Positions 1 to 43,637 of a stretch of 43,740 nt of DNA are shown piece after piece. The DNA is taken from IMG/VR virus record IMGVR_UViG_3300024988_000005; one strand, given 5' to 3'. Position 1 is the stretch's first letter. The number at the start of each line of letters is the position of its first letter. The notes under the pieces were generated by a model. It had not been told where the DNA came from. It saw nothing but the letters and a program-made list of their open reading frames with translations, and ran no database searches. The position numbers and the translations under genes are program-made. This stretch comes from a virus.

Positions 1-127
1 CTGGAAAAGGGCGGTCTGGTCCATGGGCCGACCGTGTGCGCGGCGGCCCTGCAGGTCAACGGGAAAGCATGCGCTACGCGGCCGCCGTAGCCGGCGCTTC
101 GTCCACGGTGATGCCGCCGAGGTAATC
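1..127. repeat. Terminal overlap: nt 1-127 are identical to nt 43614-43740 (circular closure of the contig)
   Basis: Both ends read base by base and found identical over 127 nt. Genes run through the junction: endolysin start codon region and promoter-like motif copy at 30-72; 3' end of the 283-aa gene. Confidence 0.9.
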
Positions 128-4373: not shown

Positions 4374-5734
4374 GCATGACTCCCAGCAGGGATCGGGTAA
4401 CTGAACTCGGAGGCAAGCTCGCGAAGTGTCGTTGTTTTGCTAAAAGATGAAGAATTTGACCCAGAAACAATCGGGTATAGCACTCCACTCAAGCCTGTAT
4501 ATGTCGGCGATGCATTCGTTGATGGGTCGCCGTTGATCCAGTTTCCATTATACGACCACCATATATTTCCGTCCTTGACACAACAGCCGATGACATCGCC
4601 GACATCCCATGAATTCAATGCTGGCTTACTGGTCCCCGAGTTATAGAACACAAGATTATTAGAGTAACCCCATCCGTTTGCGTTTGATCCAACAAAGCTA
4701 TTTGTTTGCGCAGAGGCATTGCCTACGCCGACGAACATGTATGTGGCTGCATCGACGATCAAAACCTCGAAATAACCATCGGAACTTCCGTCAACACCAA
4801 AGGCAGACTCCCAAGAGGTAGCCGGTGTCGTCACACTCGCTGTTTTGTTCGAATTCGAAAGAACGAAAGACACGCCTTTCTTCGCCGGATCGAAATAATT
4901 AGCCGTCACAGCACTGACCGACACATTCTGCGCACTCGTAGCCGTTTGCCCATCGCTTGAATCAACTGCCGCGGTGAAACTTGACGATGCTACGGTCGTA
5001 GGTGTGCCGCTGAGACGCAGCTTGTCACCGACAACGCTCAGCGAAAGGCCGTCCGGAAGCGTTCCGCTTGTCACACGAGGATTATTGTACGGAGCGACGC
5101 CACCGGTTATGGTGAGATCAGCGCTATAGGCTGATCCAACGTTACCGCTAGGATAGGTTCCGGACAGATTAAGCGCAGGGGCGGCAAAGGTAGCGCCATC
5201 AGCAAGGTCGAATATCTGCTCTCCTGCGTCACTAACGCGCACTGTCCAATTTGCTTCCCCACCTGCAGTAGGCACGCCACTGATCTTGCCGGCTGCCTGG
5301 TCGAACGATAGCCCACTCTGAAGTGCTCCTCCGACGATTGACCATGTATATGGCGGAGTGCCGCCGTTGGCAGCGTAGGTGTAGCTGTAGGCCGTGCCAA
5401 CAGAGCCGTCCGGCGCATGTCCGGTGGCGACCAGTGGCTGCGCGATCACCTGCAGGACAAACGTGCGCGTGGCCGTGGATCCACCGATATCCATCACGGT
5501 AACGACGATGCCGAACGTGCCCGGTGTTGCTACGTCCGATGCGGAGAAGATGCCGGTGGCGCGGTCGAGCGTGAGGCCGTCCGGCAGCAGGCTGCCGGTG
5601 GTGAAGCTGTACGGCGCCGAGCCGCCACGCGCGACAAGCTTCGCGCTATAGCTGCCGTGCAGGGCCACGCTGGGCAGGATGCCGGAGAGTGAGAGGCCCT
5701 CGCCGATGTCCACCAGCACGATGCGTCGGTTCAT
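4361..5734 (-). CDS. Tail protein with about four Ig-like (He_PIG-type) repeats and a C-terminal SPRY domain (457 aa)
   Basis: Repeated G.APY..... LPDGLSL....G.ISG modules. C-terminal GYFEV...VGVG...NGWGY...GDVIGC..D..G..W.S.NG...YP is a SPRY signature. ATGA overlap with the tape-measure stop. Confidence 0.65.
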   Translation of the reverse strand: MNRRIVLVDIGEGLSLSGILPSVALHGSYSAKLVARGGSAPYSFTTGSLLPDGLTLDRATGIFSASDVATPGTFGIVVTVMDIGGSTATRTFVLQVIAQPLVATGHAPDGSVGTAYSYTYAANGGTPPYTWSIVGGALQSGLSFDQAAGKISGVPTAGGEANWTVRVSDAGEQIFDLADGATFAAPALNLSGTYPSGNVGSAYSADLTITGGVAPYNNPRVTSGTLPDGLSLSVVGDKLRLSGTPTTVASSSFTAAVDSSDGQTATSAQNVSVSAVTANYFDPAKKGVSFVLSNSNKTASVTTPATSWESAFGVDGSSDGYFEVLIVDAATYMFVGVGNASAQTNSFVGSNANGWGYSNNLVFYNSGTSKPALNSWDVGDVIGCCVKDGNIWWSYNGNWINGDPSTNASPTYTGLSGVLYPIVSGSNSSSFSKTTTLRELASEFSYPIPAGSHAWAH

Positions 5735-8700
5735 GCGGTGATGCCCCGGCCGGTGAGCGCAAGCTGATCCAGCGCCTGCCGCGTGCTGGCGGCGGCCATG
5801 GTCTTGTTCGTGTTCGCCGTGCTGCTGCTGCTGCCTTCGATGGCAGCAAGCCGCTGGTCGATGCTCTTGAGCAGCGCCAGCTGTTCGGCGCTGGACGTGT
5901 TGTTGTTGGCCGAGACGCCGGTGGCCGTGGTGATCGGGGCGCCGGTGATGGTGGCGATCAGGTCGCGGCCCAGCTTCTGGATCGCATCGACGATGCTGCC
6001 GCTGGCGTCGAGCACGCTGCCGGGCACGTCCTGCAGCTTCAGGCTGTCGAGGTAGCCGGCGATGTTCGTGATGCCGAGGTCTTTGGCGAGGTCGCCGAGG
6101 TTGAAGCCGAGCCCCTTGGCCGCTTCGTTGTAGTCGATGCCGTGCGTGGTGCTGATGTCCGCCACGTACTGCGCCAGCGTCTTCGCATCGGCGAAGCGCG
6201 CCGTGGCGTTGGCCTGCGCCTGCAGCTGGTCGCGCTGGCCAGCGAGGTCGGCATACTGCTTGATGGCGTCCTGCACGCTCAGTTGGCCGCCTGTGCCGGA
6301 CAGGCCAAGGATGTCCTGCACCTTGTTGTACAGGCCGGTGTAGTCCGCGCTGCTGGCGTAGAGCTGGCGGCCCAGGCCCAGCACATCGTCGGCGCTGGTG
6401 AGGCCACTGCGCAGGCCCTGCAGGGCGAGGTCCAGCTTTTCCTTGCCGCTCAGCGGCGACTTGTCGCCGATGGCGAGCTGCAGCGCGCTCTGGGTCTTGG
6501 ACTGCATCGCATCGAGCTGCGCCTGTACCGCCTGCAGGCTGGTGCCGGTGACGTTGTAGAGCTTCGCGGCGAGGTCTTGCGCGGCGCTGCTGAGTTGGGC
6601 GATCGCGTCGGCCGCCTGCTTGGCGGCGAACTGGTGGATGTTCACCAGGTCCTGCTCCGCCGCGCCCTGCATGCCCGCCGCGCGCGCCAGGTCGTTCGCC
6701 TGGTCGATGTTCGCCTGCATCTGCTTGGCGATGGCCTCCAACGAGGCGCCAAAGCCGGTGCTGACCGGTGCGAACTGGCCGACGAACTGCACATAGGCCT
6801 GGCTGGCCTGCATCAGCCGGTTGTAGGTATCCGCCAGCTTTTCGCCATCGGCCTGCAGGCTCTGGGTAAACGCGATTACCTGCGCCAGCGTTGCCTGACT
6901 TCCCAGCGCCACGAGGCTATTGCCATGCAGGATGTCCTGCTGGGCAGCCAGCATGGCGGCGACGCCATCGGCCAACGTATCCACGTTCGACTGCCACTGC
7001 TTGGCGATCTTGTTGGCCACATCGCCAGCGCTGGCCGCGATCACCGACAGAAGCGCCTCGGCGCCGATGCGCTGCGCGGCGGCATCAGCCGTGGCTTCCT
7101 TCCACGTCTGGCCAAGGTAATTGACCATGTAGGTCGTGGCTTTGCTCTTGACGTCGTAGTGCGACTGCAGCGATGCCGAGATCATCTCAGGCACGGCAAC
7201 GCCAAGCTTCTGCGCACCCTGAACCAGCACCTTCTCAACGCTGTCGTACAGCGCGTTAGCGGCGTCGATCATGTCCTGCGTCGGCGCCACCTGTTCGCTT
7301 CGGTGCTTGGTGCCGCCGAACAGCGCCTTCTTGCCGCTCTCGTACACGGTGCTGCTGGCGCTCGCGCCGCCCGCGCCGATCTGCAGGAAGGTATCCGAGC
7401 CAGTTGGCTTGTACCCGGTGCCGAACAGGCCGCCGCCGGTGAGCGCGTCAATGGCTCCAAGCGCGGCGAGGCTCCAACCCGCTACAGGAATCCAGCTGGC
7501 GCCCGCGGCTGCGCCGAACGCGCCACCTGCCGCCGTTCCGAGCGATGCACCACCAGCCACACCGGCCGCCGTACCAGCCAGCCCAGCGCCTAGCGCGCCG
7601 TATCCAGCAGCGCCGAAGAGACCACCGATGCCGCCGCCGGCATGGTTGTACCCGTAATAGGCACCAAGCAGGCCGCCGCCAGCGCTGGCCCACGGCGCCG
7701 CGTAGCCGCCAAGGCCGAAGGATCCACCCAGTGGCGAGTAGCCGCCAGGCACCATGATGCCATTGCTTCCGGCATAAGCGATCTGTCCGTTCGGCAGGTT
7801 GATGCCGAGCGCGTTGCTGCCAGCCTGTGCGGACAGCGAGGACGTTCCGGCGCCGCCCCACAGGCCGCCGGTGCTAGCCCACTGGTAGGCCTTGTATCCC
7901 TGTAGGCCTTGCTGCACGAAGCCCATATAGCCTTGCGAACCGCCGCCACCCGCATTGCCACCGACCGCGCCAGCCGTCGTGCCGATCGTGCCGCCGTTGC
8001 CGTAGTAGTTGGATGACAGCGACAGGCTGCTTCCAGCAAGGCTGCCAGTGACGCCGAGCCAGCCAGCGATGGAGCCCATGGCTCCGGACAGCAATGGGCC
8101 GAGTATCCGCAGGCGCACGAACTGGCTGATCAGGTCGCTCACGAACTGCCGCGCGATCGACTTCAGAGACTTGCCGAAATCCTTCCAGCTCTTCGTCTGG
8201 CCGGTGATCAGGTCGCCAAACGCCTTGCTGATGCTGCCGGCGGCGTTCTCCCAGAAACCGGCATATTCCTGCGCGATCTGGCGCTGCTCATCGGCCATTT
8301 GCTTCATGTCGAACGAAGCTCCGGCCGCAGCTTCCACGCGCTGCTTCTCCGCTTCCAACTGATCCCTAGTCAGCTTCAGGTTCTGGGTGCGGGCATCCTG
8401 TTCATACTCCAGACCTGCCCGTGCAATCGCCTGGTCGCGATCGCTCAACGTTGATAGCCAGGCTTCCTGTTGCAATTGCTCGATCAGTCGACCGGATACG
8501 TCCAACTGGCGCTTGATCTTCGTGTACTCATCATCGCGAGCAGCGCTCGCCGCGGTGATGCCTTCGGCAACGAGCTTCTGCGCGGATGCCTCGACCGCCG
8601 CGGCATCGGCCACGCTCATATGGCCTTTTTTCACCGCGTCCTGGGCCTTGGTGATTTCGTCGCCGGCCTTCTTCGCCAGATCGCGGATGCTGTCGATGTA

Positions 8701-10158
8701 GGCAGCATCGGCCTTGTCGTATGGCGATCCGGCTTCCCCCTTCAGCTTATCGACCATATTGGCCAGGCTGGTCAGGTCGGGGAGCGCCGCCTTGGCGGCC
8801 TCACGCATCTTGCCGATACGTGCGGCCCAATCGGTTCCGGGATTGATATCTCCTTGGAAGAGGCCGAGCTTATGGGCGCCAGCCGTCACCTGGTCCGCGA
8901 GCGCCTTGGTTTGCGCATCCACCGCGGCATTGGCCTTGGCCAGTTCGCTGGGGAACATCTTGTCGGTGAACGTCTTCAGCTCGGACCACAGATCCTTGAT
9001 GTCGCCCACGAATAGCCCGGTGTTCGACTTCATGCGGGCAAAGCCCGACGCTGTATTGGACGCCATGGTGTCGAAGGCCGTGGACCAGGTATCCACGACG
9101 CCTTTCACGTCGAAATGCAGGCTCTGGGCCATCGCGGTTTTCGCCGCGGTGAAGAAAGCCGTGGTGTTCTTGTTGATCGTGGTGAGGCCGGCGGCGAGAT
9201 ATTCCACTGCAGCCGCCACGGCGGTGGCGATCGCCTTAACCGCCACCACCACGGCATCGATGGCCACGGCCAGGCCCTTCATGGCATTCGCCAACACCGT
9301 GGCGATGCCGTTCATTCGATCGGCCTGCTCATTCGCGTCGCCCATGCCGGAGCCGACATCCAGCAACGATGGGAGCAGCTCCTTCAGGAACGTGTTGGCG
9401 GCGCCTGCGGCCAGATTCTTCATGCGTGCCAGGCGGTCGTTCAGTTCGGTGGCCTGCGCCGCCGTGTTCTGATCGATCATCAGGCCAAGCTTTTCGGCCT
9501 CGGCGGCCATGGCCGCCAGACCTTCCTTGCCCTGGTTGAGCATGGGTATCAGCTTGGCGCCTTCGCTTCCGAACAGCTTCACCGCCAGGGCGGCTTTGTT
9601 TGGTCCGTCCTGCACGCGGCGGAAGCGGTCGGCCAAGTCCGGCAGCATGTCAGCCAGCGATCGCAGATTGCCGCTGGCATCCTTCACCGGAACGTTCAGC
9701 GCAGCGAATGCTGCGGCGTATTGCTTCTGGCCGGCGGCAGCCTTGGTTTGGCTGTCCGCCAGCGCCTGCAGGCTGGTGTCCAACACCTGCAGATCGGCGC
9801 CGCTGGACTTCGCGGCATAGCCCATCGAACTGATGAACTCGGTGCTCACGCCGAAGCGCTGCGCCATCTTCCCAGTGGAGTCGGCGACATCCAGCTGGCG
9901 CTTCACCAATGCGGCGAATCCCGCAACCGTGGCGCCAACCGCCAGGCCGATGGCCTTCCCGGCACTGACCGCCGATTTCTCCGCGTCCTTCGCGGCGCTA
10001 TCGATGGCTTTGCCGGCGCCCTTGGCCTTGTCGCTGACCACATCGAAGGATCCACCGAGATCCTTCATCTGCTGCTTGATCACCGCCACCGTGCCTGTCA
10101 GGCCCTTGGCGTCGCCGGTCAGAACAATGGTGATTTCTCGGCGCTTCGAGTCAGCCAT
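5731..10158 (-). CDS. Tail tape measure protein (1475 aa)
   Basis: Very long Ala/Gln/Leu-rich helical ORF with an internal Gly-rich segment, located downstream of the tail tube and chaperone genes. Confidence 0.85.
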   Translation of the reverse strand: MADSKRREITIVLTGDAKGLTGTVAVIKQQMKDLGGSFDVVSDKAKGAGKAIDSAAKDAEKSAVSAGKAIGLAVGATVAGFAALVKRQLDVADSTGKMAQRFGVSTEFISSMGYAAKSSGADLQVLDTSLQALADSQTKAAAGQKQYAAAFAALNVPVKDASGNLRSLADMLPDLADRFRRVQDGPNKAALAVKLFGSEGAKLIPMLNQGKEGLAAMAAEAEKLGLMIDQNTAAQATELNDRLARMKNLAAGAANTFLKELLPSLLDVGSGMGDANEQADRMNGIATVLANAMKGLAVAIDAVVVAVKAIATAVAAAVEYLAAGLTTINKNTTAFFTAAKTAMAQSLHFDVKGVVDTWSTAFDTMASNTASGFARMKSNTGLFVGDIKDLWSELKTFTDKMFPSELAKANAAVDAQTKALADQVTAGAHKLGLFQGDINPGTDWAARIGKMREAAKAALPDLTSLANMVDKLKGEAGSPYDKADAAYIDSIRDLAKKAGDEITKAQDAVKKGHMSVADAAAVEASAQKLVAEGITAASAARDDEYTKIKRQLDVSGRLIEQLQQEAWLSTLSDRDQAIARAGLEYEQDARTQNLKLTRDQLEAEKQRVEAAAGASFDMKQMADEQRQIAQEYAGFWENAAGSISKAFGDLITGQTKSWKDFGKSLKSIARQFVSDLISQFVRLRILGPLLSGAMGSIAGWLGVTGSLAGSSLSLSSNYYGNGGTIGTTAGAVGGNAGGGGSQGYMGFVQQGLQGYKAYQWASTGGLWGGAGTSSLSAQAGSNALGINLPNGQIAYAGSNGIMVPGGYSPLGGSFGLGGYAAPWASAGGGLLGAYYGYNHAGGGIGGLFGAAGYGALGAGLAGTAAGVAGGASLGTAAGGAFGAAAGASWIPVAGWSLAALGAIDALTGGGLFGTGYKPTGSDTFLQIGAGGASASSTVYESGKKALFGGTKHRSEQVAPTQDMIDAANALYDSVEKVLVQGAQKLGVAVPEMISASLQSHYDVKSKATTYMVNYLGQTWKEATADAAAQRIGAEALLSVIAASAGDVANKIAKQWQSNVDTLADGVAAMLAAQQDILHGNSLVALGSQATLAQVIAFTQSLQADGEKLADTYNRLMQASQAYVQFVGQFAPVSTGFGASLEAIAKQMQANIDQANDLARAAGMQGAAEQDLVNIHQFAAKQAADAIAQLSSAAQDLAAKLYNVTGTSLQAVQAQLDAMQSKTQSALQLAIGDKSPLSGKEKLDLALQGLRSGLTSADDVLGLGRQLYASSADYTGLYNKVQDILGLSGTGGQLSVQDAIKQYADLAGQRDQLQAQANATARFADAKTLAQYVADISTTHGIDYNEAAKGLGFNLGDLAKDLGITNIAGYLDSLKLQDVPGSVLDASGSIVDAIQKLGRDLIATITGAPITTATGVSANNNTSSAEQLALLKSIDQRLAAIEGSSSSTANTNKTMAAASTRQALDQLALTGRGITA

Positions 10159-10188: not shown

Positions 10189-10231
10189 GACCGTGTGCCG
10201 CGATCAGTGGTGGGTCAACGGGAAAGCATGC
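10189..10231 (-). promoter_or_regulatory. Conserved late promoter-like element, copy B (upstream of tape measure)
   Basis: Minus strand reads GCATGCTTTCCCGTTGACC-N15-CACACGGTC. The same 43-nt architecture occurs at 18510-18552, 23764-23806 and 43643-43685. Confidence 0.55.
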
Positions 10232-15823: not shown

Positions 15824-18505
15824 TCAGGTACCGCGGGCGTTGGTGAAGCTGTACGCCAGGATCGACGTGAAGCGGCCACGCAGCGGCTTCGGGATGTGCA
15901 GCGAGCTGTACTCCTCGCCGTACGCGCCCTTCTTGCCCAGTGCCAGGCCGTTGCTGTCGAACAACTCATACGGCACGCCGGTCTGGAACGTCTTGGCGAT
16001 CGTGTAGAAGAAGTTCGCGCGCTGGCCGAGCAGCATGCGCTCGTCGCCCAGGTCGATGCCGGGGGCGTCCGTGGCCCAGCCCGGGATGCCCTTCACCGGC
16101 TGCAGCGTGCCCTGCGCGGTGATGCTGCTGTCCGCGCGGGAGTTCGCCTCGGTGAACTGCTCCGCATCCGTGATCATGTTGGTGAGCACGTCGCTGGCCA
16201 GGAAGAAGTCCGGCTGCACATAGCGCTGCTGGCTCATCGTGGCCTTGCGCGCACCCACCGCCTGCAGCAGCTTGTTCATCTGCTTTTCGTAGGTGCTTCC
16301 GGCGGCGATGTCGGTGTCCACCTTCAGCACGTTGGTGGTGTAGCTGTAGCCGGCGGTGACGGTGCCGGCCGGTGCGCTGGGGGCGCCGGTCTGGTCCACG
16401 ATCTGGAACGTGCCCAGGTTGTAGCTCAGCCAGCGGTAGTACTTGCCGGCCGACTGCGTGCCGCTGCCGTCGAACTCCACCAGTGCGGTGGCGCCATCCT
16501 TGATCGACACCGGCTGCTCGGCGCTGCCCACGGCGTTGCCCTTCAGGTCGCGCGCCTGGTACGGCCGTACTACCGGGAAGTTCGCCACCTTGTAGCCGTT
16601 GGTGGCACCGCTGTACGCGGTGACGGCAGTGCCGGCGGCCACGTCCACCACGCTGAAGCTGTCGCTGTCGCGCAGCATGCGGTTGGCGATGGCCGCGGCC
16701 ACCAGCTCGCGCATCACCTGCGCGTTGCTGACGATGTTGCGGGCCCAGGCGTCGAAGTTGATGATCGAGCTGTTGCGGCTGAAGTACGCCGCCTCGTTGG
16801 TCAGCTCCATCGCCAGCTTGCGCGGCTCGATGTAGGCGTAGTCCATCGCCTGAGCGATGCCGGCGCGGTGGATCGGCTGGCCCTCGTACACGATGCCGCC
16901 ATTGCGCACGGCGCTGGTGTCGCGGGTCTCGTACGGCACCGAGTGGGTCGGACCGGTGGTCGGGTCCACGGCGGCGTTCACCAGCTGCAGCACGTCCAGC
17001 CGCTGGTAGACCTGCTCGATCACCGCGCGCTGCACGCTGGCGGGGATGTTCATGTCGCCGGTGTTCACCGGGCCACCCGCCAGCATCTTGGCTTCCTGAT
17101 GCAGCTGCTGGGCATGTTCGCGGTCGAACTCGGCCAGCATGCGCTTCACGAACGGGCTCTGCTTGTCCGGCTCGGCGAACACCAGCTTGCCGTTGAACGC
17201 CTCGTTGGTCTGCTGCAAGCCCTTGCGCACGTCCTCGCTCAGCTTGCGGATGGCGTTGCCGTCGTCCACGGTGATGTGGGTGACGCCGGAGCGGATCGGG
17301 AAACCCTGCTCGGCCAGCTTGCGCGAGGCCTCGATCTGGTTGCCCAGGGCGATCTGGTTGGCGGCCAGCGCGGTCACCTGCGCATCGGTCATGTCGCCGG
17401 TGATCAGGCCGTCGACGTTCTCGCCCAGCGTCTTGCGGGTGTCTTCGGACAGGCCTGCGGCGGCGGCGATCGCGTCGCTGAACAGCTTGACCTTGGCGGC
17501 CTTGTCGGTGGCCAGCTTGGTCGCGGCGGCAACGCGGGCGGCTTCGCGCTCATCGAGCAGCTTGGTGATGTCGGCCTCGCTCAGCATCTTGCCGGCCGGG
17601 GCCGTGATGTTCAGCGTGACCGGGCCGTTGTGGCCAGCCTCGGCCAGCGTCTTGCCGGTGGCGGTGAGCTGGTCGACCAGGCCCTTGTGGGCCTCGGCAT
17701 CCTCGCCCAGGTTCTTGGCGGCCGCCTCGTAGGCGGCGCAGATGGACTTGATGGTTTCTTCGCTGAGCTTCATGGCGCGCAGGTTGGCGCGCAGGGTTTC
17801 GAGCCAGTTCATGGTGGTCTGCTCCAGGGATTCGGACAGTTGTCGGATCAGTTCCGGGTGCAAGAACACCGGGGTATTGGCGGTGCCCTCGGCGAGGGTC
17901 ACCGGGTCCATGCGCTTGATGACGGGGCGCGTGGTGAGCCCGGCGCCAAGAAGCGTCGGGCCGTGGGGCTGTTTGGTTTCGTTGTCGACGAAGTTGTCGA
18001 CGAACTCGGCGCTGAGGTACACGAAGCCGCGATCCTTCACCGCGGCCACACCGTACGGGGTGAACTCCACGTCCGCGCGCAGGCGGTTGCCGTCCACCTT
18101 CAGGCTGAGGATCTTCGCGGCGGCGCCGTCATTCGGCGCATGCGCCACGTCGATGAAGATGTCCTGGCCGTAGGCGTGCGAGTCGAAGTTGCGAACCATG
18201 CTCAGCAGCATGTCGCGGGTGATCTCGAACGTGCCGTAGCGCGGATCGCTGAACGTGCCAGTGCGGATGATGGTGACCGTGGCGCGTGGCGAGCCTTCCG
18301 CCAGCTTCACGCCGTCCAGGCCGCACATGAAGCGCTTGGCGCCGGGTGGCGGGTCATTGTTGTCCAGCCGGAAGACGCGCGGCGCGGCCGGCGGCGTGGC
18401 CAGCCCTGCCAGTGCAATCGCCATCAGTCGTTTCAGCATCGCCGTCTCCGCAAAATCGTCCCGCCGCGCCACTGCCATGGTCGCGGCGGGACCTCCCGCT
18501 GCCAT
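15824..18505 (-). CDS. Fused prohead protease (Mu gpI-like) - scaffold - major capsid protein (893 aa)
   Basis: The N-terminal third resembles Mu-like prophage protease I (IIRTGTF..., IDVAHAP). The middle is an Ala/Glu/Lys coiled coil. The C-terminal ~450 aa is capsid-like. No stop interrupts the ORF. Start is 18505 or the ATG at 18478. Confidence 0.6.
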   Translation of the reverse strand: MAAGGPAATMAVARRDDFAETAMLKRLMAIALAGLATPPAAPRVFRLDNNDPPPGAKRFMCGLDGVKLAEGSPRATVTIIRTGTFSDPRYGTFEITRDMLLSMVRNFDSHAYGQDIFIDVAHAPNDGAAAKILSLKVDGNRLRADVEFTPYGVAAVKDRGFVYLSAEFVDNFVDNETKQPHGPTLLGAGLTTRPVIKRMDPVTLAEGTANTPVFLHPELIRQLSESLEQTTMNWLETLRANLRAMKLSEETIKSICAAYEAAAKNLGEDAEAHKGLVDQLTATGKTLAEAGHNGPVTLNITAPAGKMLSEADITKLLDEREAARVAAATKLATDKAAKVKLFSDAIAAAAGLSEDTRKTLGENVDGLITGDMTDAQVTALAANQIALGNQIEASRKLAEQGFPIRSGVTHITVDDGNAIRKLSEDVRKGLQQTNEAFNGKLVFAEPDKQSPFVKRMLAEFDREHAQQLHQEAKMLAGGPVNTGDMNIPASVQRAVIEQVYQRLDVLQLVNAAVDPTTGPTHSVPYETRDTSAVRNGGIVYEGQPIHRAGIAQAMDYAYIEPRKLAMELTNEAAYFSRNSSIINFDAWARNIVSNAQVMRELVAAAIANRMLRDSDSFSVVDVAAGTAVTAYSGATNGYKVANFPVVRPYQARDLKGNAVGSAEQPVSIKDGATALVEFDGSGTQSAGKYYRWLSYNLGTFQIVDQTGAPSAPAGTVTAGYSYTTNVLKVDTDIAAGSTYEKQMNKLLQAVGARKATMSQQRYVQPDFFLASDVLTNMITDAEQFTEANSRADSSITAQGTLQPVKGIPGWATDAPGIDLGDERMLLGQRANFFYTIAKTFQTGVPYELFDSNGLALGKKGAYGEEYSSLHIPKPLRGRFTSILAYSFTNARGT

Positions 18506-18509: not shown

Positions 18510-18552
18510 GACCGTGTGCGGCGGGTTTCGGGATGTCAACGGGAAAGCGTGC
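18510..18552 (-). promoter_or_regulatory. Conserved late promoter-like element, copy C (upstream of capsid ORF)
   Basis: Minus strand reads GCACGCTTTCCCGTTGACA-N15-CACACGGTC. An ATG follows 4 nt later. Confidence 0.55.
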
Positions 18553-18712
18553 GCACCGGCGCCAACACCACCGGCACGGTGATCCAGCGCTTGCAGCGGT
18601 TGCAGCGGGCCTTGCTCTCGGTGGTGCCCAGACGAACCACGCGGGCGGTGAGCACGTTGTCCACCAGCAGCTTCTTGCCGCAGCCGGGGCAGCACAGGCC
18701 GTCGGTCTTCAC
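18536..18712 (-). CDS. Com-like zinc-ribbon protein (58 aa, GTG start; not in the supplied ORF track)
   Basis: My translation is VKTDGLCCPGCGKKLLV...ARCNRCKRWITV. The two CxxC pairs have spacing and flanks like Mu Com (CKNCNKLL...RCPRCKRHI). GTGA overlap with the upstream stop. Its own stop lies inside the TTGAC box of copy C. Confidence 0.5.
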   Translation of the reverse strand: MKTDGLCCPGCGKKLLVDNVLTARVVRLGTTESKARCNRCKRWITVPVVLAPVRTLSR

Positions 18713-21226: not shown

Positions 21227-22798
21227 CTATGCCGCGTGCGCGAGGAGCTTCTCGCGGCTGTGGCTCGTGGAAAGGATGATGGTGGGCGCGTGCGCGGTGC
21301 CGCGCGTGGCCAGCCCCCATACCGCGGCCATGGCGGCGTCGAAGCCGTCGTCGCCCAGTTTCGGGTTGGCCATCTTGTAGCTGCTATAGCTGGTCTTCGT
21401 GGGCTTGGCCACGATGTTCGGCAACTGCCGGGCGAACGCGCGCAGGTCGGCGGTTTCGCGGCAGGCCATGTCCTGGTCGTCGAAGTACGGCAGCACCGCG
21501 GCGTCGTTGTGGAACACCGTGCGCAGCGCGTGCGCCATCTGGTGCTTGGTCATGCCCTCGAAGCGCATCGGGCTGAACGCCCACTCCGGCCAGGTGCTGG
21601 CGGTGCTCTCGCCGTCGCCAATGGCGCGGCGGTCGATGTCGGTCAGGCCCTCGCGGAACAGCTCGTCGTTCAGCGCGGTGAGCATACCCACGCCGAAGGC
21701 GTCGCCGATGGCGTAGTCCGGGCGGAAGTACCGCCAGAACGCCACCAGGTCCTTCTGCACCTCCGGCTCACCGGTACCGGCCGGCCAGAACTTCACGAAC
21801 GGGAAGAAGATGAAGTTGCCGATCTGCTCGGCCACCACCAGCGCATGCTTCGAGCTGGCCGGGTTCTCGCCGTGGCCGGCGGCGTCGTAGCCGAAGCTGA
21901 GCACGCCGCGGCGCGGGTACTTCGCGCCGGGGAACGGCTCGGCCAGCTCCAGCCCGCTGCGCAGGCCAAGCTGCATGGCCGCGCGCACCTTGTTCTCCCA
22001 GATCAGGTTGCGGCTGCTGATGTTCTTGCACAGCAGCTGGCGGATGTATTCGTCGGGATCCAGCTCGGCCCGCATCTGCTCCATGAACTTGGCGTTGAGG
22101 ATGCCCAGCTCGATGCCAAGGTGCACGTCCACCGTGGGCAGCACGTGGTACTGCTCGCCGGCGATCATCTCGCTCAGCGTGTCGGCGCCCTTGAACACGC
22201 CGGTGATGCGGATCTCCGGCGTGTTCTCGCTGTCGGTGCTGGCGCCAAGGCGGCGCGTGGAGCCCATCATCAGCAGGAAGCGACCGTACAGCCGGTCGCG
22301 CGGCATGTCGTCCACCTCTTCCAGGCTGGCCATGGTGAGGTCGCCGCCGTCGACGTTCGCCATGATGCCGTAGGCACGCGCCATCGATCGGTTGGCGTAC
22401 TGGAAGTAGGTGTCGGCCATCTGCTGGCGGCCGCTGCGGTAGTTCAGCCAGGCGGTGAGGATGGGGCTGCGGCGGATCGCATCCAGGTGATAGTTCAGGT
22501 TCACCAGCGACTGCGCCTCACGCGGCGCCACGATGCCAAGCTCCTGGTCCGCCTTGGTGGCCAGCTTCATGTTGTTGTACATCTCCTTCACCGCCGTCTT
22601 TCCAGTGCGGCGGCTGCTGAAGTCGATGGTGTTGGGGTGCCGGTCCATCTCGATGCACTTGAGCACCTGCATCGGGTCCAGCGTCACGTTGTGCACGTGC
22701 TTGTGCCACAGCGCATGGTCATGGGCGTAACGCATCACCTCGCGCTCGGCCACGCTTTGCAACCGGTAGCGCTCGGCGCGGGAGATCCGCTCAGCCAT
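21227..22798 (-). CDS. terL: Terminase large subunit (523 aa)
   Basis: Walker A-like SSRRTGKT, Walker B-like LTMASLEEVDD, and a C-terminal nuclease-like acidic motif (GYDAAG, IGDAFG). Confidence 0.8.
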   Translation of the reverse strand: MAERISRAERYRLQSVAEREVMRYAHDHALWHKHVHNVTLDPMQVLKCIEMDRHPNTIDFSSRRTGKTAVKEMYNNMKLATKADQELGIVAPREAQSLVNLNYHLDAIRRSPILTAWLNYRSGRQQMADTYFQYANRSMARAYGIMANVDGGDLTMASLEEVDDMPRDRLYGRFLLMMGSTRRLGASTDSENTPEIRITGVFKGADTLSEMIAGEQYHVLPTVDVHLGIELGILNAKFMEQMRAELDPDEYIRQLLCKNISSRNLIWENKVRAAMQLGLRSGLELAEPFPGAKYPRRGVLSFGYDAAGHGENPASSKHALVVAEQIGNFIFFPFVKFWPAGTGEPEVQKDLVAFWRYFRPDYAIGDAFGVGMLTALNDELFREGLTDIDRRAIGDGESTASTWPEWAFSPMRFEGMTKHQMAHALRTVFHNDAAVLPYFDDQDMACRETADLRAFARQLPNIVAKPTKTSYSSYKMANPKLGDDGFDAAMAAVWGLATRGTAHAPTIILSTSHSREKLLAHAA

Positions 22799-23756
22799 TT
22801 TCGCCAGCCTGCTGCTTGTGCTCGATCAGCACCGGGTCGCGCACGGTGTTCTCGCGGCTGCGGGCGATCAGGTTGCTGAGGTCTTCCAGCGCCAGCGTGG
22901 TGCGCTTCTGGTACTCCAGCTGGCTCTCCTGCCGCTGCTGCTGGCCGGCCAGGTAGCCCACGGCATCCTCGGTGGCCTCCTTCGCCTTCGGCGTCATGCC
23001 CATGTCGCTCAGCGACAGGCCGATCTTCGCCACCCACTCGCCGATGCGCTTCAGCATCGGGTGCTCGGTCAGCACCATAATGGTTTCGCGCTCATGCGGA
23101 AGCAGCTTTCCGCTGTCATCGTCGCGACCACCTATCTGAGCCACATGGAAGCCGCCATCCTTGTCGTAGTACCAGGCTGGCGTCCTGATCGTGCTGCCGT
23201 CGCGGATCACGTCCAGGATCATCAGGTTGACGATGCTGCGCAGGTTGGCGTGCAGGTCCGCGTTCAGGTCGTTCAGCAGCTTCGGGTCGCCGGCGGTGAA
23301 CGCCAGATGGTGGGCGAAGTACAGGTCGACGCGCTTCTGGCAAGCCGTGGCGGTGAAGCAGCTGCTGAAGTATTCGCAGCCATCGCAGTCCGGGTATTTG
23401 CCCGGCCGCGCCGGCCAGTACGTGGCGGTGCGGGCGTTCAGCCCGTGCTTCAGGCCGTTGAAGCGCGTGCGTCGAGCCTCTTCCGGGGTGGGGTGGCCTT
23501 CCAGGTTCTTCGCCGTGCTGGCCAGCCCCTCGGCGGTCTTCGGCCCGGTGGCGTGTGCCCAGGCCTTCAGCAGGCCGCGCTGCTGGCGTTCCTGCTCGCA
23601 CTCCCGGCCACACTCGGGGCAGGTGCCCACGTAGCGCCAAGGATGCCATTCGTCTTCCGGCGCATCCTCCACGCGGACGGGCTTGGCCTCGAAGCGGTAG
23701 TCGCAGTCGAGGCAGTGGAACCGGACATCATCGAGGCGTGGCCGCAGCTTTCCCAT
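22791..23756 (-). CDS. Cys-rich protein in the small-terminase position (321 aa)
   Basis: N-terminal zinc-ribbon pairs (CLDCDY...CPECGREC). Overlaps the terL start by 8 nt. Assigned by position only. Confidence 0.3.
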   Translation of the reverse strand: MGKLRPRLDDVRFHCLDCDYRFEAKPVRVEDAPEDEWHPWRYVGTCPECGRECEQERQQRGLLKAWAHATGPKTAEGLASTAKNLEGHPTPEEARRTRFNGLKHGLNARTATYWPARPGKYPDCDGCEYFSSCFTATACQKRVDLYFAHHLAFTAGDPKLLNDLNADLHANLRSIVNLMILDVIRDGSTIRTPAWYYDKDGGFHVAQIGGRDDDSGKLLPHERETIMVLTEHPMLKRIGEWVAKIGLSLSDMGMTPKAKEATEDAVGYLAGQQQRQESQLEYQKRTTLALEDLSNLIARSRENTVRDPVLIEHKQQAGENG

Positions 23757-25122
23757 GCTGCATGACCGTGTGCGGGCTGGCGCCGCGGGTCAACGGGAAA
23801 GCGTGCGGGTGGTGTTCCAGCCGCGGGGCGAACCGGCGGCGCCGGGTGGCCGAATGCAGCCACGGGAACCTCTGGTGCAATGACTGCCGCAGCCGGAAGC
23901 TGCTGGCATGGCGCAGGTGGCCGGCATAGCTGGCCAGCGTGGACTGGACGCACCGAAGTTCGGCCGGCGTAGCCCGGATGAAACCGGCGCCGACGTGCCG
24001 TTGCTCCCAGCTAGCCAACGCCGATCGCAGGTGGACGGCAACGCGGCGGCGAACCAGCGTATGGGTGGGCCGCACCACGTAGCCGAGGAAGTCGATGCCA
24101 TCGGCCAGCGGGCGCAGGCGGATGTCGTCCTTCAGCACCAGGTGCAGCTCGCGCTGAAGGAAGTCGGCGATCCTGCGCTGCCAGTCGGCCAGCACCGCAC
24201 GGTCGTGGTGGACCAGCACGAAGTCGTCGACGTAGCGCACGTACCGCTTCGCGCGCAGGACGTGCTTCACGAACTGGTCCAGGCGATCGAGGTAGATGTT
24301 GGCGAACAGCTGCGAGCTGAGGTTGCCGATCGGCAGCCCGCAGCCCGGGGCAGCGTTGGCCAACCGTTTGTGTGCCGGCACCAGGGCGAACTCCGCTGGT
24401 GTGCCGCGCATCTTCACCCCGGCGGCCAGCGGCGGCCGGCGCAGCAGTGCATGGGTGGCGCGCTGCATGGGCAGCGGCACTGCATGCCGTTCCAGCACCG
24501 GCTTCAGGATGCGCCACAGCGTGGGCCGGTGGATCGAGTTGAAGAAGTTGCGGATATCGAGCTGCAGGTAGTAGCCGCCGCCCTGGCCGCTGTGCACCTG
24601 GCGGACGAACTGCTGCACGCGCCGCACGGCCGCATGGCTGCCCTTGCCGCGGCGGTTGGCATAGCTGTCGGCGATGAACCGCGGCTCCCAGATGGTTTCC
24701 AGGCGCGGAACCAGCCAGTGGTGTACCACGCGGTCGGCGAAGTCCGGCGCGTGGATCTCGCGCGCCTTGGGCCGCGTGGCCACGAAGCACACGCTGGGCC
24801 GTGGCCGCCACGTGCCGGCCTGCAACTCGCGCTGCAGCTGCAGCAGACCATCCGTCCAGCGGGCATCGAACGCGAGCTGGTTGCGGCTCGGCTGCTTTCC
24901 CCGGCGCGCCATGCGCCAGGCGTCATGGAGCGCGCGAAGCGAAACTGCCCCGGCGCCCGCCCCCTGATACTCACCGGCCGACACGACACGCACCGCCCGC
25001 ACGCAGGCCTTGTTGTTGCGGTCGTTGTTGTTGGCATTGCCGTTGTTGAAGTTGACGATCCACGCGCAGGACGGCGCCCACGCTTCCCCGCGAACTTGCG
25101 ACCTGGGCGAACAGTCCGGCAT
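23728..25122 (-). CDS. DGR reverse transcriptase (ORF as tracked is 464 aa; true start uncertain, possibly ATG at 24912)
   Basis: RT motifs: PKAREIHAPDFADRVVHH, ANRRGKGSHAA, LDIRNFFNSI, GLPIGNLSSQLFANIYL (the DGR-type IGxxxSQ) and RYVDDFVL (YxDD). The TR lies in the 5' extension of the ORF. Confidence 0.85.
   Translation of the reverse strand: MPDCSPRSQVRGEAWAPSCAWIVNFNNGNANNNDRNNKACVRAVRVVSAGEYQGAGAGAVSLRALHDAWRMARRGKQPSRNQLAFDARWTDGLLQLQRELQAGTWRPRPSVCFVATRPKAREIHAPDFADRVVHHWLVPRLETIWEPRFIADSYANRRGKGSHAAVRRVQQFVRQVHSGQGGGYYLQLDIRNFFNSIHRPTLWRILKPVLERHAVPLPMQRATHALLRRPPLAAGVKMRGTPAEFALVPAHKRLANAAPGCGLPIGNLSSQLFANIYLDRLDQFVKHVLRAKRYVRYVDDFVLVHHDRAVLADWQRRIADFLQRELHLVLKDDIRLRPLADGIDFLGYVVRPTHTLVRRRVAVHLRSALASWEQRHVGAGFIRATPAELRCVQSTLASYAGHLRHASSFRLRQSLHQRFPWLHSATRRRRFAPRLEHHPHAFPLTRGASPHTVMQHGKAAATPR
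23764..23806 (-). promoter_or_regulatory. Conserved late promoter-like element, copy D (upstream of packaging genes, inside the 3' end of the RT ORF)
   Basis: Minus strand reads GCACGCTTTCCCGTTGACC-N15-CACACGGTC. The ATG of the 321-aa gene begins 7 nt later. Confidence 0.55.
24973..25083 (-). repeat. DGR template repeat (TR)
   Basis: About 111 nt homologous to VR1 and VR2. The coding strand is AAC/A-rich (translates NFNNGNANNNDRNN). All mismatches to the VRs fall at TR adenines. Confidence 0.85.
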
Positions 25123-39172: not shown

Positions 39173-39610
39173 CTAGGCTTCGTCGAGGATGCGGCGAATG
39201 TGAGACGTGCTCGGCACGTCACTGGTGATAGAGGTGAGGTGCTGGCGGATTTGTTCCAGGTCCAGGCCTTCGGCGGCAAGCGAGCGCATCAGTTGGTTCC
39301 GCTGGTATCGCATGTACGTCGACAGCTTCGGAAGCACGATGCGATCGCGAGTGCCCGCTGCATCGACGGTGGCCAGCGCATGCCACAGCGCCATGAAGGC
39401 ATCGAAGCCGATGATGGCGGCCACCCGCGGCCACGGCTGCGGCAGCCCGATGCGCCGCAATTCGGCAAGCCGTGGATCCGCGGGCGGCGTCGGCGCCGAC
39501 GCGCCAAGGCGCGCCCCGTTTTTCGTGCAGACATCCTGGTACCCACCCCCGCGAGCTGGGGCGCGGGGCAAGGCTGCCGACCCCCCGGGTGCCGTGCCGG
39601 AGCGGCTCAT
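39173..39610 (-). CDS. Mor/C-family-like transcriptional activator (145 aa)
   Basis: The C-terminal IVLPKLSTYMRYQRNQLMRSLAAEGLDLEQIRQHL...IRRIL resembles Mu Mor (VYIPRG...RDLRIWNDFNGRNVSELTTRYGV...VYKAIRR). Recalled from memory, not searched. Confidence 0.4.
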   Translation of the reverse strand: MSRSGTAPGGSAALPRAPARGGGYQDVCTKNGARLGASAPTPPADPRLAELRRIGLPQPWPRVAAIIGFDAFMALWHALATVDAAGTRDRIVLPKLSTYMRYQRNQLMRSLAAEGLDLEQIRQHLTSITSDVPSTSHIRRILDEA

Positions 39611-39857: not shown

Positions 39858-40961
39858 TCATTTATCAGGCCCAGTATGGGTGCGAGGAACGCGTGGATGG
39901 CGCTCTGCGGCGTCGATGCGGCGCAGATCCTCCAGCACCGGCGTTCGCAGCTTGCCCAGCGGGTTGGCCTTGTCGACGGTGCGTCGCAGCTTGCGCATCG
40001 CCAGGTGTGCGTAGATCTCCGTACTCTTCGGATCGTTATGCCCCATCAGTGCCTGGTTGGCGAAGAGGCTGGCGTCTTCCTCAGCCAGCTCGGTGCCATA
40101 GAGGTGTCGCAGCGCGTGCGGGTTGAGCTGGTCTGCTGGGATCTTCGCGGCAGCGCCATGCTTGGCCAGCAGGTCACGCACGGCATATTCGCTGATGCGC
40201 CGCGCCTCGCCGCGGTAATCGCACGCCGGCACCATGTGATTGGCCACCGTCACGAACAGCACGCGATCGCCATCCTCCAGCGTCCGGTCGATCTCGGCCA
40301 GCTCGGGGTGGCCAAGGTAGGCACGCAACAGCAGCGCCACCTCGCGTGGCGCCGGCATGTGGCGCTCCTTCGAGCCCTTCTCCACGACGCGGATCACCAG
40401 ATCCTCTCGGCCTTCGAACTCGGTCCAGATCATCGCCGACTCGTTCAGCGCGCAAATGCCGCTGATGCGCAGGCCGAGGCCCATCAGCACGGCCATGATG
40501 GCTGTATCGCGCAGGCCGAGAAACGTGGCCAGGTCGGGCTGGCGTAGCAGCAAGTCGGCATTGCTCAGCGTGATCGCTCGCGGCAACGGGCGCCCCGCCT
40601 TCGGATAGGGCAGGTGCTCAGCGACGTTCACCGGCAGCTTGCCCTGCGCATGCGCCCAGGCATAGAAGCCGCGCACGGCCGACACAAATACGCGGCGCGA
40701 GCGCGCGCCGATGCCCTGGCTGTGGCACACCATGCCGCTGAAGCGCTCCAGATCCGCCAGGGTCATGGCCAGCAGGTCAGACGTGCCGCAGCGCAGATGT
40801 TCGGCAGGCGGCGGCTCGATGCACCACTTCGCCAGGCGTTCAAGGACTGACTGGTACAGGTCGATCGTCTTCGGCGAACGGCCCTTGTTGAACTGCAGCC
40901 AGATCAGCCAATCGTTCACCAGGGCGTTGTAATGGTCGAGCTCGGCGGGGGGGACAGGCAT
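39858..40961 (-). CDS. int: Tyrosine integrase / XerC-D-like recombinase (367 aa)
   Basis: N-terminal SAM-like core-binding region. Catalytic GLRISG, HALRHLYGT and LMGHNDPKSTEIYAHL in order. Adjacent to a repeat-rich non-coding region. Confidence 0.8.
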   Translation of the reverse strand: MPVPPAELDHYNALVNDWLIWLQFNKGRSPKTIDLYQSVLERLAKWCIEPPPAEHLRCGTSDLLAMTLADLERFSGMVCHSQGIGARSRRVFVSAVRGFYAWAHAQGKLPVNVAEHLPYPKAGRPLPRAITLSNADLLLRQPDLATFLGLRDTAIMAVLMGLGLRISGICALNESAMIWTEFEGREDLVIRVVEKGSKERHMPAPREVALLLRAYLGHPELAEIDRTLEDGDRVLFVTVANHMVPACDYRGEARRISEYAVRDLLAKHGAAAKIPADQLNPHALRHLYGTELAEEDASLFANQALMGHNDPKSTEIYAHLAMRKLRRTVDKANPLGKLRTPVLEDLRRIDAAERHPRVPRTHTGPDK

Positions 40962-40989
40962 CGCACACCGGTTTCCGTGGAACTGATAT

Positions 40990-41020
40990 GACCGTGTGCT
41001 GCAACTTCCATTTAGTCAAT
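40990..41020 (-). promoter_or_regulatory. Core-only copy E of the promoter-like element (TTGACT-N15-CACACGGTCAT) upstream of int
   Basis: Same spacing and CACACGGTC box as copies A-D, but lacks the upstream GCAYGCTTTCCCG half. Confidence 0.45.
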
Positions 41021-41212
41021 CAGTTACGGTCCCACGCCGTTCCACGTTTTCCGTTCATCTTCCGTGGAAACCGTGGAACCCGATTTCAAACGGTTGTTTC
41101 AACCCGTGGAGCCGGCCTTCCTTCCTGCCTGCCCTTTCTTCTTCTTTCTATTCAATGACATGAGAGAGATAAAAGAGGTGTGACGTAGCGAAACGCAAGT
41201 GGAAGGAATGGA

Positions 41213-41275
41213 GCAAACCGTGGAACTTCCATCGCAAACCGTGGAATTGAAGTCGCGAATCGTGGATTGGTTGCT
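41213..41275 (+). repeat. Three tandem 21-bp direct repeats (GCAAACCGTGGAAnnnnnnnn)
   Basis: gcaaaccgtggaacttccatc / gcaaaccgtggaattgaagtc / gcgaatcgtggattggttgct. The 21-bp phasing equals two helical turns. Confidence 0.7.
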
Positions 41276-43025: not shown

Positions 43026-43637
43026 TCATTCCGGCACCAGCGCGGCTTTGGCCACGGCCCAGCGCCGGCGCCGATCGTCGACGCCGTTGGCCTTGCCGAT
43101 ATCCGCGTTGGGCGAACCCAGGTTGATCGCGCACGTGATGCGGTCGAATTCTCCTGCATTGGCCAGCGCGCTCAGGCCATGCGTATGCCACCACCAGGCC
43201 GACATGGCGCAGCCGATATCGATCGAATCCAGCAGCTCGGGGTGGGCCACCAGATCGAGACCTAGCGCAATGCCGGCGGCGCGGTGGTTGGCCTTGCCCG
43301 TCAGCTGGATCGGGCCATGCCCGCGGAATCGACGCCCATCGCCCTGCTGATCGTTGCCGAGCTCGTACGCCTTGCGGTTGCGGTTATCGGCGGACGTCGG
43401 CGGCCATGCCGCATCGAAATTACGCTCGTAGCGCACCTGAGCGGGCGTCGGTCCCCACAGCTCGGCCGAATAGCGGAAGCCCATCGACTCATGCCCGCAC
43501 TGCGCGAGAAAGGCCGCCTGGTCGTCCGGCGTGTCGATGTGCCATTCCGCCATGGCGTCGAACATCGGGGGCGCCCACGCCGCCGCGATCGATGCGGTAC
43601 AGCCCGTGGCGCGCTGGAAAAGGGCGGTCTGGTCCAT
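43026..43637 (-). CDS. Endolysin, glycoside hydrolase family 19 (chitinase-like, 203 aa)
   Basis: FLAQCGHESMGF and RGHGPIQLTGKANH are the GH19 catalytic-region signatures. Confidence 0.8.
   Translation of the reverse strand: MDQTALFQRATGCTASIAAAWAPPMFDAMAEWHIDTPDDQAAFLAQCGHESMGFRYSAELWGPTPAQVRYERNFDAAWPPTSADNRNRKAYELGNDQQGDGRRFRGHGPIQLTGKANHRAAGIALGLDLVAHPELLDSIDIGCAMSAWWWHTHGLSALANAGEFDRITCAINLGSPNADIGKANGVDDRRRRWAVAKAALVPE

Follow-up and report, generated by a model that had tools for sequence, protein, structure and literature searches.

A 43-nt element stands at the head of the lysis, packaging, capsid and tape-measure modules in a phage that is most likely a temperate siphovirus of Rhodanobacter-like (Xanthomonadales) hosts. 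On the minus strand the element reads GCAYGCTTTCCCG-TTGACN-N14-GCACACGGTC. The window, by which we mean the whole 43,740-base stretch of DNA analyzed here, contains four full copies, together with a copy of the core that precedes a tyrosine recombinase gene. We consider it probable that these elements are promoters, whether or not they depend on an activator, and we favor, with less assurance, the reading that they form a set of activator-dependent late promoters. The comparisons below directly establish the copies, where they lie, how they are conserved, how they diverge and that they lack RNA structure; from these we infer that they act as promoters, where transcripts begin, that an activator is needed and which protein it might be.

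Genome and module heads

The window is a complete phage genome of approximately 43.6 kb, with a G+C content of 66% and nearly all of its genes on the minus strand. Its ends overlap by 127 bp, bases 1-127 being identical to 43614-43740. In order of transcription, the map starts with a repressor-like gene on the plus strand (36646-37446) and a CII/CP76-like gene, followed by early genes that include a second tyrosine recombinase and a primase, and then by a diversity-generating retroelement (DGR). The packaging module comprises p321, a 523-aa protein, the portal and a MuF-like protein, after which comes a 58-aa zinc ribbon. The 523-aa protein has no Pfam or PHROG match; its homolog in phage vB_MaeS-yong1 (yong1 hereafter) carries the annotation 'DNA packaging protein'. 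The head and tail region runs from a Mu-I-protease/capsid fusion through head and tail genes, the tail tube and the tape measure to the distal tail genes. The last segments of the map hold a GH19 endolysin and a holin, and then a tyrosine recombinase, a 145-aa HTH protein (HTH-145) and a large serine recombinase. By this annotation, the assignment of the five sites to the lysis, packaging, capsid, tape-measure and int modules, made earlier in a sequence-only reading of the window, holds.

An identical copy of the phage is integrated in a 482-kb metagenomic contig, where the junction with host DNA falls at 37598/37599 of the window. Integration is by the serine recombinase and not by transposition. 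A related prophage is present in Rhodanobacter sp. FW102-FHT14D07, and the sole cultured relative is 'Microcystis' phage vB_MaeS-yong1. An Rfam scan of the window gave a single match, sRNA-Xcc1 at 10479-10570, outside the motif; the moron-like insert with this match is located upstream of the tape-measure head.

We searched for the pattern TTGAC-N15-GCACACGGTC, permitting up to two mismatches, and compared the result with 100 shuffles. There were six exact matches on the minus strand (43643-43672, 23764-23793, 18510-18539, 10189-10218, 40990-41019 and 30-59) against 0.33 expected, and none of the 100 shuffles reached six. Because of the terminal overlap, the match at 30-59 is a repeat of the 43643 copy. 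Directly upstream of the core, GCAYGCTTTCCCG is found in the four late copies and is missing from the copy at 40990, which bears out the claim that an additional 13 nt are conserved at the late heads only. The sequence-only reading had described a spacer of 15 unrelated nucleotides between its two boxes. The spacers are indeed unrelated, but the base preceding CACACGGTC is G in every copy in the window; the 3' box is therefore 10 nt long (GCACACGGTC) and the free spacer 14 nt. Its alternative notation, TTGACN-N17-CACGGT, is arithmetically correct.

We also scanned the window with a sequence-only profile built from 21 copies. The four full copies score 45-49 bits (E about 1e-13), and the next-best match, at 13702-13727, scores 12 bits (E 0.01) and consists of a partial 5' box and -35 inside a small ORF. 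For the core-only copy the score is 6 bits, to which only the 3' box contributes. The profile found no further full copy in the window, and these scores thus give a copy number of four full and one core-only, the same set of four late heads and one int-proximal core that had been read from the letters.

Each full copy stands before the first gene of its module and takes up nearly all of the space between this gene and its co-directional upstream neighbor (Table 1). At the lysis head, the stop codon of a 283-aa tail gene lies 1 nt from the motif. The TGA within TTGAC serves as the stop codon of the 58-aa zinc-ribbon gene at the capsid head; the last codons and stop of this gene are encoded by the 5' box and the -35. 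The motif at the packaging head is read through by the DGR reverse-transcriptase ORF, whose overlapping 3' tail is not conserved. The DGR cassette upstream of this head is present in the window and in L081, a sister lineage described below, and absent from L080, L085 and L091. Inverted copies of the 3' box occur downstream of the tape-measure and int heads, and are perfect (GACCGTGTGC) in L081.

Table 1. Copies of the element, parts of the capsid-head copy, and associated genes in the 43,740-base window
Feature	Position	Strand	Remarks
Capsid-head copy	18510..18552	-	Pattern match; profile score 46.5 bits
Capsid-head 5' box	18552-18540	-	GCACGCTTTCCCG
Capsid-head -35	18539-18534	-	TTGACA
Capsid-head 17-bp spacer	18533-18517	-	Final 3 nt, GCA, conserved
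Capsid-head -10-like hexamer	18516-18511	-	CACGGT; conserved C at 18510
Lysis-head copy	43643..43685	-	
Duplicate of lysis-head copy	30..72	-	Via terminal overlap; not independent
Packaging-head copy	23764..23806	-	
Tape-measure/tail-head copy	10189..10231	-	
Core-only copy	40990..41019	-	TTGACT-N14-GCACACGGTC, without 5' box
TTCCACGG repeats	40975..41246		Seven, in a cluster around the core-only copy
GH19 endolysin	43026..43637	-	First gene of lysis module
p321	22791..23756	-	First gene of packaging module
Mu-I-protease/scaffold/capsid fusion	15824..18478	-	
Tape measure protein	5731..10158	-	First gene of distal tail module
Tyrosine recombinase	39858..40961	-	Downstream of core-only copy
HTH-145, orphan 145-aa HTH protein	39173..39610	-	Downstream of core-only copy
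58-aa zinc-ribbon protein	18536..18712	-	CxxC-X25-CxxC

Conservation in related phages

Copies in relatives were recovered by exact-pattern and protein-guided searches. The element stands at the same four heads in IMG/VR contigs 3300038412_000093, 2708743159_000001, 3300013102_000067 and 3300013102_000477 and in the Rhodanobacter prophage. At least six related genomes, one being the prophage, contribute 18 distinct full copies, in which both boxes are invariant and the 14 spacer positions differ freely even between orthologous copies; for example, the lysis-head spacers of relatives read ggcggtgcatggcg, tgcagggccgccgc, cgcggggcttgccg and tgcgcgcccgaccc. Invariant boxes with free spacers therefore point to selection on two words at a fixed distance, and not on a contiguous repeat. 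A scan of genome contigs gave one match only, in Rhodanobacter.

The search of related genomes thus found the motif conserved in at least six of them and, in diverged form, in two sister lineages, where the boxes have drifted and TTCCC-n-TTG, the exact spacing and the terminal C are retained. The first of these, L081 (contig 3300012942_000073), has a portal 68% identical to that of the window and follows the pattern CCTTCCCC/GTTTCCCC/GCTTCCCA + TTGACC/TTGACT/TTGAAA + N14 + (G/A)CACACGGTC. Its packaging head reads CATGCCTTCCCC-TTGACC-N14-ACACACGGTC, its capsid head GTTTCCCC-TTGACT-N14-GCACACGGTC and its tape-measure head GCTTCCCA-TTGAAA-N14-GCACACGGTC. The second, 3300021415 (three contigs from one sample), has a capsid 58% and an HTH-145 protein 46% identical, and follows TTCCCG + TTGCAN + N14 + GCA + GACAGT/CACCGT/TAACGT + C. 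Here the lysis head is GCTTTCCCG-TTGCAT-N14-GCA-GACAGT-C, the packaging head CATTCCCG-TTGCAG-N14-GCA-CACCGT-C and the capsid head CCTTTCCCG-TTGCAG-N14-GCA-TAACGT-C, and a core-only TTGTTA-N14-GCA-TAACGT-C precedes the tyrosine recombinase.

Over the 21 aligned late-head copies of the three lineages, the length of the element is constant, and the columns without any variation are TTCCC, the -35 TTG, CA, A-11 and G-8/T-7/C-6. The statement that boxes and spacing are invariant accordingly holds for the 18 copies of the window's own lineage, and for the spacing everywhere, but the invariant CACACGGTC is specific to that lineage and not universal. In the more distant yong1, just CTTCCCGT is kept of the motif, at three module heads, and the full profile gives no significant match in its genome. 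When the TTCCC box was sought in distant loci bearing HTH-145, matches fell mostly within coding sequence, and in about 60 related loci chance matches overwhelmed a de novo search for bipartite repeats (7+7 nt).

Evidence for promoters

The -35 hexamer is close to TTGACA in all copies in the window (TTGACC, TTGACA and TTGACT), and its TTG is retained also in the int-head cores TTGACT and TTGTTA. The spacer between the hexamers is exactly 17 bp in every copy of every lineage. CACGGT matches TATAAT at two of six positions, and the two concerned, A2 and T6 of the hexamer, are retained across CACGGT, CACCGT, GACAGT and TAACGT, the last of which would make a fair -10. In promoters of the primary sigma factor, the TTG, the 17-bp spacer, A-11 and T-7 are the most important positions. 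The pattern of divergence is the one expected of promoters; neither an RNA signal nor a generic protein word would predict it. The promoter interpretation offered by the sequence-only reading is to this extent supported by the comparative data, in which boxes, spacing and sigma-70-critical positions are kept; the 'Mor-like' regulator that went with it is not, as discussed below. A simple sigma-70 consensus scan calls none of these sites because CACGGT has only its two matches to TATAAT, a miss that fits a promoter built to need help.

We propose the following mechanism. Host RNA polymerase with its primary sigma factor would read the four elements as late promoters. In each, a consensus -35 (TTGACN) would be set at the optimal distance of 17 bp from a -10 that is weak by design (CACGGT, with A-11 and T-7 the only consensus bases left). 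With this -10 alone, the promoter should open poorly. The asymmetric 13-bp GCAYGCTTTCCCG abuts the -35 and covers about -48 to -36, with its center at about -42; class II activators bind in the -48 to -36 region. The box would bind a phage-encoded activator that contacts polymerase in class II manner, and binding would switch on the lysis, packaging, head and tail operons together. Two observations count against parts of this proposal. The strict invariance of the 10-nt GCACACGGTC within this lineage exceeds what a generic -10 needs, so that another factor may read it, and whereas most activator sites are dyads, the 5' box is not symmetric.

The ATG of the tyrosine recombinase, at 40961, follows the core-only copy by 28 nt. 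This copy would drive the operon of tyrosine recombinase, HTH-145 and serine recombinase independently of the late activator. The TTCCACGG repeats around it are likely sites for another regulator or a recombinase, and this putative promoter is probably controlled through them.

Other promoter classes fit poorly. An ECF promoter would be expected to have a GGAAC-like -35 and a CGT-like -10 at 16-17 bp, and the motif has no AAC at -35. Compared by eye, the ECF, sigma-54, sigma-28 and sigma-32 consensuses match it in neither sequence nor spacing. The kind of element is familiar, and its consensus is undescribed in the searchable literature: a literature search for the motif words returned unrelated primer matches only, and no paper on yong1 regulation was found.

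Start codons and leaderless mRNAs

The start codons at two of the heads lie very close to the predicted transcript start. In all copies of the window's lineage, the endolysin ATG (43637 in the window) is exactly 5 nt past GGTC, and the five intervening nucleotides vary (ggccc, aggcc, ggcgt and tgtcc). With T-7 at 43644, the A of this ATG is the predicted +1. The p321 ATG, at 23756, is 7 nt past the motif, and the protein start MGK lies 6-7 nt past the box in three lineages. Both genes lack a Shine-Dalgarno sequence. With both ATGs no more than about 2 nt from the predicted start, the endolysin and p321 mRNAs are probably leaderless or near-leaderless, and expression of the two genes would require transcripts that begin at the adjacent promoter.

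Relatives of the phage either lack the proximal ATGs that the window has at the capsid and tape-measure heads or carry them frame-shifted. The capsid start is probably the second ATG, at 18478, because the proximal one at 18505 is unconserved, and the true tape-measure ATG is at 10158, about 25 nt past the predicted transcript start. The lack of conservation of the proximal ATGs therefore places the starts of both genes about 25-27 nt past the predicted start. A leaderless reading at all four heads was dropped for these two and kept for lysis and packaging.

Candidate activators

Our best candidate for the activator that binds the 5' box, put forward tentatively, is HTH-145, which is 40% identical to a yong1 protein annotated as 'middle operon regulator'. 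The sequence-only reading had spoken of a Mor-like gene. The Pfam model of Mor/C (PF08765) matches neither HTH-145 nor any of 28 homologs, even at E<=5, a PDB profile search with HTH-145 found nothing, and NCBIfam has nothing for it. In PDB, Foldseek ranks the Pax6 paired domain first (E 0.41) and returns no Mor; in BFVD the yong1 homolog is the sole match, and neither database gives a Mor/C match better than E 2. Alignment of HTH-145 to the Mu C/Mor alignment by hhalign gives a probability of 0.45% and E 0.13. No other scanned ORF matches Mor. None of these searches supports a Mor/C identity or links HTH-145 to another characterized activator, and we do not retain the label.

The AlphaFold model of HTH-145 (pLDDT 79) has a disordered N-terminus followed by two three-helix units. 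From the model we would only infer that a monomer with two HTH units would fit an asymmetric site of 13 bp well. HTH-145 is found in every lineage with the TTCCCG box, and more than 50 IMG/VR contigs encode it, against a single cultured phage record. Because it always adjoins the serine recombinase at the prophage end, a role in recombination directionality is equally possible.

The 58-aa zinc ribbon is a second candidate regulator. BLASTP aligns 11 of its residues with Mu Com (pairwise E 0.004), and it has an RCxRCKRxI motif like that of Com. No HMM matches it and it has no family assignment. A Com identity was not adopted on an 11-residue match without HMM support, and is kept as a lead.

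Alternative readings

The sites might be promoters of a different kind, at which a phage-directed or alternative specificity factor (a sigma-like protein or a sigma appropriator) reads GCACACGGTC as a substitute for the -10, perhaps with co-recognition of the 5' box. All 10 nt of the 3' box, non-consensus bases included, are identical in the 18 late copies and the core-only copy, and bases outside the hexamer are also kept, namely GCA at -15 to -13 (CA in all 21 copies) and C-6. In further support, many phage ORFs belong to no recognizable family. Against this reading, no scanned ORF of the phage has a sigma-70 region 2 or 4, ECF or polymerase-related domain, and the -35 is a sigma-70 consensus at optimal spacing. 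In 3300021415, moreover, the hexamer varies by promoter and A-11 and T-7 are kept, as in an ordinary sigma-70 -10. We judge this reading unlikely. We see a rather small chance that GCACACGGTC, with GCA (-15 to -13) and C-6, is more than a weak -10 and forms a word recognized by a phage factor of an undescribed kind, which would retarget host polymerase to the late promoters, coupled to leaderless translation of the first late genes; such a factor could be HTH-145 or another unassigned ORF.

The sites could also be operators or roadblocks resembling stoperators, through which a lysogen repressor would silence the late modules and the recombinase operon. They are asymmetric, all point the same way relative to transcription and occupy intergenic gaps where modules begin, and the inverted copies of the 3' box past the tape-measure and int heads are what a dimeric binder might use. 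However, the immunity region (36600-36720) has repeats unlike the motif (ATGTGGGG), and scanning 36300-36750 with the profile reveals no copy of it. There are only five sites, each at the start of an operon, and the positions kept in the diverged lineages are sigma-70 contacts and not a protein-specific word. Nor would a roadblock require the conserved spacing of 5-7 nt to the start codon. This explanation seems to us quite improbable.

A signal acting at the RNA level in polycistronic transcripts, either a processing site or a translation-initiation signal such as the target of a Com-like zinc ribbon, has less to recommend it still. It would account for a 3' box placed 5-7 nt before the endolysin and p321 start codons, neither of which has a Shine-Dalgarno sequence, and a small zinc ribbon with a Com-like RCxRCKRxI is encoded beside the capsid head. 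Yet the box has no anti-Shine-Dalgarno complementarity, the likeness to Com has no HMM support, and 23-30 nt separate the motif from the real start codon at the capsid, tape-measure and int heads. Two-part words whose spacer is fixed in length but free in sequence are typical of DNA recognition. RNAalifold, given 12 copies with their flanks, found four invariant pairs at -2.6 kcal/mol and zero compensatory changes, and Rfam has no match at the motif. With no conserved fold, covariation or Rfam family, a hairpin or riboswitch was discarded, and for RNA-level signals as a whole we see very little probability.

Finally, it is scarcely credible that the elements are homology patches at module boundaries, serving recombinational module exchange without a regulatory role: the stretch immediately before the packaging head varies (DGR present or absent) and a moron-like insert lies upstream of the tape-measure head, but a homology patch would keep its spacer too, and spacers differ even among orthologous copies; the sigma-70-like conservation would be left unexplained, although such a function could coexist with that of a promoter.

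Comparison with known systems

[quoted passage not shown] In both phages, four co-regulated promoters head lysis, head and tail operons, one late copy lies directly before a Mu-I-type protease gene, and host sigma-70 polymerase is used in Mu and would be used here. The Mu C site is a 16-bp imperfect dyad centered at -43.5 that overlaps the -35 (PMC2582627), and the conserved box here likewise lies against the -35, near -43. The quality of the hexamers is reversed, however: Mu late promoters have a recognizable -10 and no -35, and in the elements here it is the -35 that matches the consensus and the -10 that is weak. The Mu C site is a dyad, whereas GCAYGCTTTCCCG is asymmetric and without dyad symmetry; Mu uses the Mor/C activators, whereas the candidate regulator here has no Mor/C signal; and Mu transposes, whereas the phage here integrates by serine recombinase. 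Because of the reversed hexamers, the lack of a dyad and the lack of a detectable Mor/C protein, the element is not a member of the Mu C-dependent family.

The late promoters PP, PO, PV and PF of the P2/186/P4 group are activated by the zinc-finger proteins Ogr, B and Delta at an element, TGT-N12-ACA, that is a dyad centered near -55. As here, a temperate phage has four late promoters with a common upstream element and encodes a small Cys4 zinc protein. No TGT-N12-ACA dyad is present in our case, however; sequences upstream of -48 are unrelated between copies, and the zinc ribbon has a Cys spacing (CxxC-X25-CxxC) different from that of the Ogr/Delta proteins.

T4 middle promoters combine a MotA box at -30, which replaces the -35, with sigma appropriation by AsiA and an excellent -10. 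They share with the present elements a phage-specific word at the -35 joined to recognition of the -10 region by host sigma-70, but here it is the -35 that is intact and the -10 that is deviant, and no MotA or AsiA homolog was detected. The stoperators and start-associated sequences of mycobacteriophages are single words of 13-17 bp in a dozen or more copies, the stoperator being a repressor operator. Like our elements, these repeats are short, asymmetric, oriented and intergenic, lie just upstream of gene starts and belong to temperate siphoviruses; in contrast, we find five bipartite sites with sigma-70 geometry, none of them in the immunity region.

Significance

If confirmed, these results would provide a compact, portable late-promoter consensus and an orphan regulator for a widespread group of uncultured phages. 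The architecture, in which a perfect -35 is paired with an invariant non-canonical -10 and an asymmetric box abuts the -35, is unusual, and the probable leaderless late mRNAs in a gammaproteobacterial host would be a further unusual trait. The motif would aid the annotation of operons in these prophages, and could supply parts for orthogonal switches in high-GC proteobacteria. It would also offer a simple test case for the rescue by an activator of promoters that are defective in the -10 rather than in the -35. Should a dedicated specificity factor instead prove to read the 3' box, the elements would represent a new promoter-specificity system in temperate phages of Xanthomonadales.

Inverted and partial copies of the motif

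The 3' box of the late-promoter-like motif recurs in inverted orientation 15-19 nt downstream of two of its copies, the one at the head of the tape-measure module and the core-only copy before int, the tyrosine recombinase gene. At the tape-measure head of L081, a contig of a diverged lineage, the inverted arrangement is perfect (GCACACGGTC-N15-GACCGTGTGC). These inverted copies are unaccounted for by a model of sigma-70-type late promoters with an activator-binding 5' box. An inverted repeat also surrounds the core promoter of the packaging head (23745-23802, minus strand), because the start of p321 (CATGGGAAAGC), the first gene of that module, matches the 5' box (GCTTTCCCG/ATG) in reverse complement. 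The latter may be a coincidence, since the MGK start of the protein is kept in distant relatives for coding reasons.

A small ORF contains a partial copy of the motif (12 bits, E 0.01), which precedes the tail tube gene by approximately 140 nt and may represent either a chance match or an additional promoter that is weak or decayed. A consensus scan of 8000-43740 called no canonical sigma-70 promoter. Repeats of the ATGTGGGG type occur in the immunity region (36600-36720), where a better -10 element, in TTGCAT-N17-CAGTAT, faces the repressor-like gene on the opposite strand.

Features of the window discussed in this part, with positions and strands as reported
Feature	Position	Strand	Remarks
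Inverted 3'-box copies	10163-10198 and 40964-40999	-	CGTGTGC; ACCGGTGTGC
sRNA-Xcc1 match	10479-10570	-	Rfam, 68 bits (gathering score 53)
Partial motif copy CCGTTCCCGTTGACA	13702-13730	-	5' box and -35; no in-register 3' box
Zinc-ribbon protein, 58 aa	18536-18712	-	CxxC-X25-CxxC; conserved in relatives
DGR reverse transcriptase	23728-25122
DGR bAvd	25141-25578
DGR template repeat (TR)	24968-25083
DGR variable repeats (VR), two	25598-25713, 26017-26132
Prophage-host junction	37598/37599; 11862/11863 in L012; also in L014		Inside 3' end of large serine recombinase gene
Large serine recombinase gene	37502-39163
TTCCACGG repeats (n = 7)	40975-41246		Flank core-only promoter

Surroundings of the module heads

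At the capsid head, the 5' box and -35 of the promoter encode the C-terminal TLSR and stop codon of a small zinc-ribbon protein that was recognised by no HMM library; its RCNRCKRWI resembles RCPRCKRHI of Mu Com (pairwise E 0.004). In the 5' UTR that follows (18479-18509, minus strand), a small hairpin (GCGGGA-nn-TCCCGC) overlies an SD-like GGGAGG. Its stem is preserved in the window and in the orthologues of L004, L005 and L006, with a loop of GG, GT or a 1-nt deletion, and the hairpin may serve translational control.

The sRNA-Xcc1 match, preceded by a terminator-like hairpin (10616-10595), lies within a moron-like insert, which separates the tail chaperone genes from the tape-measure-head promoter.

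We also observed that 23728-26444 is a complete diversity-generating retroelement (DGR). Each VR lies at the 3' end of a target gene; the two target genes are paralogous and Lcl_C/C-type-lectin-like. Of the differences from the TR, 12 of 13 in one VR and 12 of 14 in the other are at adenines of the template. L081 carries the cassette as well, and the closest relatives (L080, L085 and L091) lack it.

Relationship to vB_MaeS-yong1

The 'Microcystis' phage vB_MaeS-yong1 (MT855965; 66.7% G+C) shows synteny with a Rhodanobacter-type prophage lineage and, in parts, 72-75% DNA identity to it. Microcystis is a low-GC host, at about 42%, with which this G+C content and kinship sit oddly. Several annotations of the phage, among them gas vesicle protein, apolipoprotein and glutamine amidotransferase, look spurious.

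Recombinases and integration

The TTCCACGG repeats occupy an AT-richer non-coding region of approximately 650 nt upstream of the tyrosine recombinase. The pairs immediately preceding the ATG are direct, and those farther upstream are inverted. Distant relatives have analogous repeats, (A/T)TCCACGG or TCCACC, in the same arrangement. The tyrosine and serine recombinases are adjacent in the phage, a pairing kept in more than 50 contigs. The prophage-host junction falls approximately 97 nt before the serine recombinase stop codon, the same point at which the prophage-derived IMG/VR contigs of relatives stop. Because the junction is inside this gene, integration should alter the C-terminus of the recombinase.
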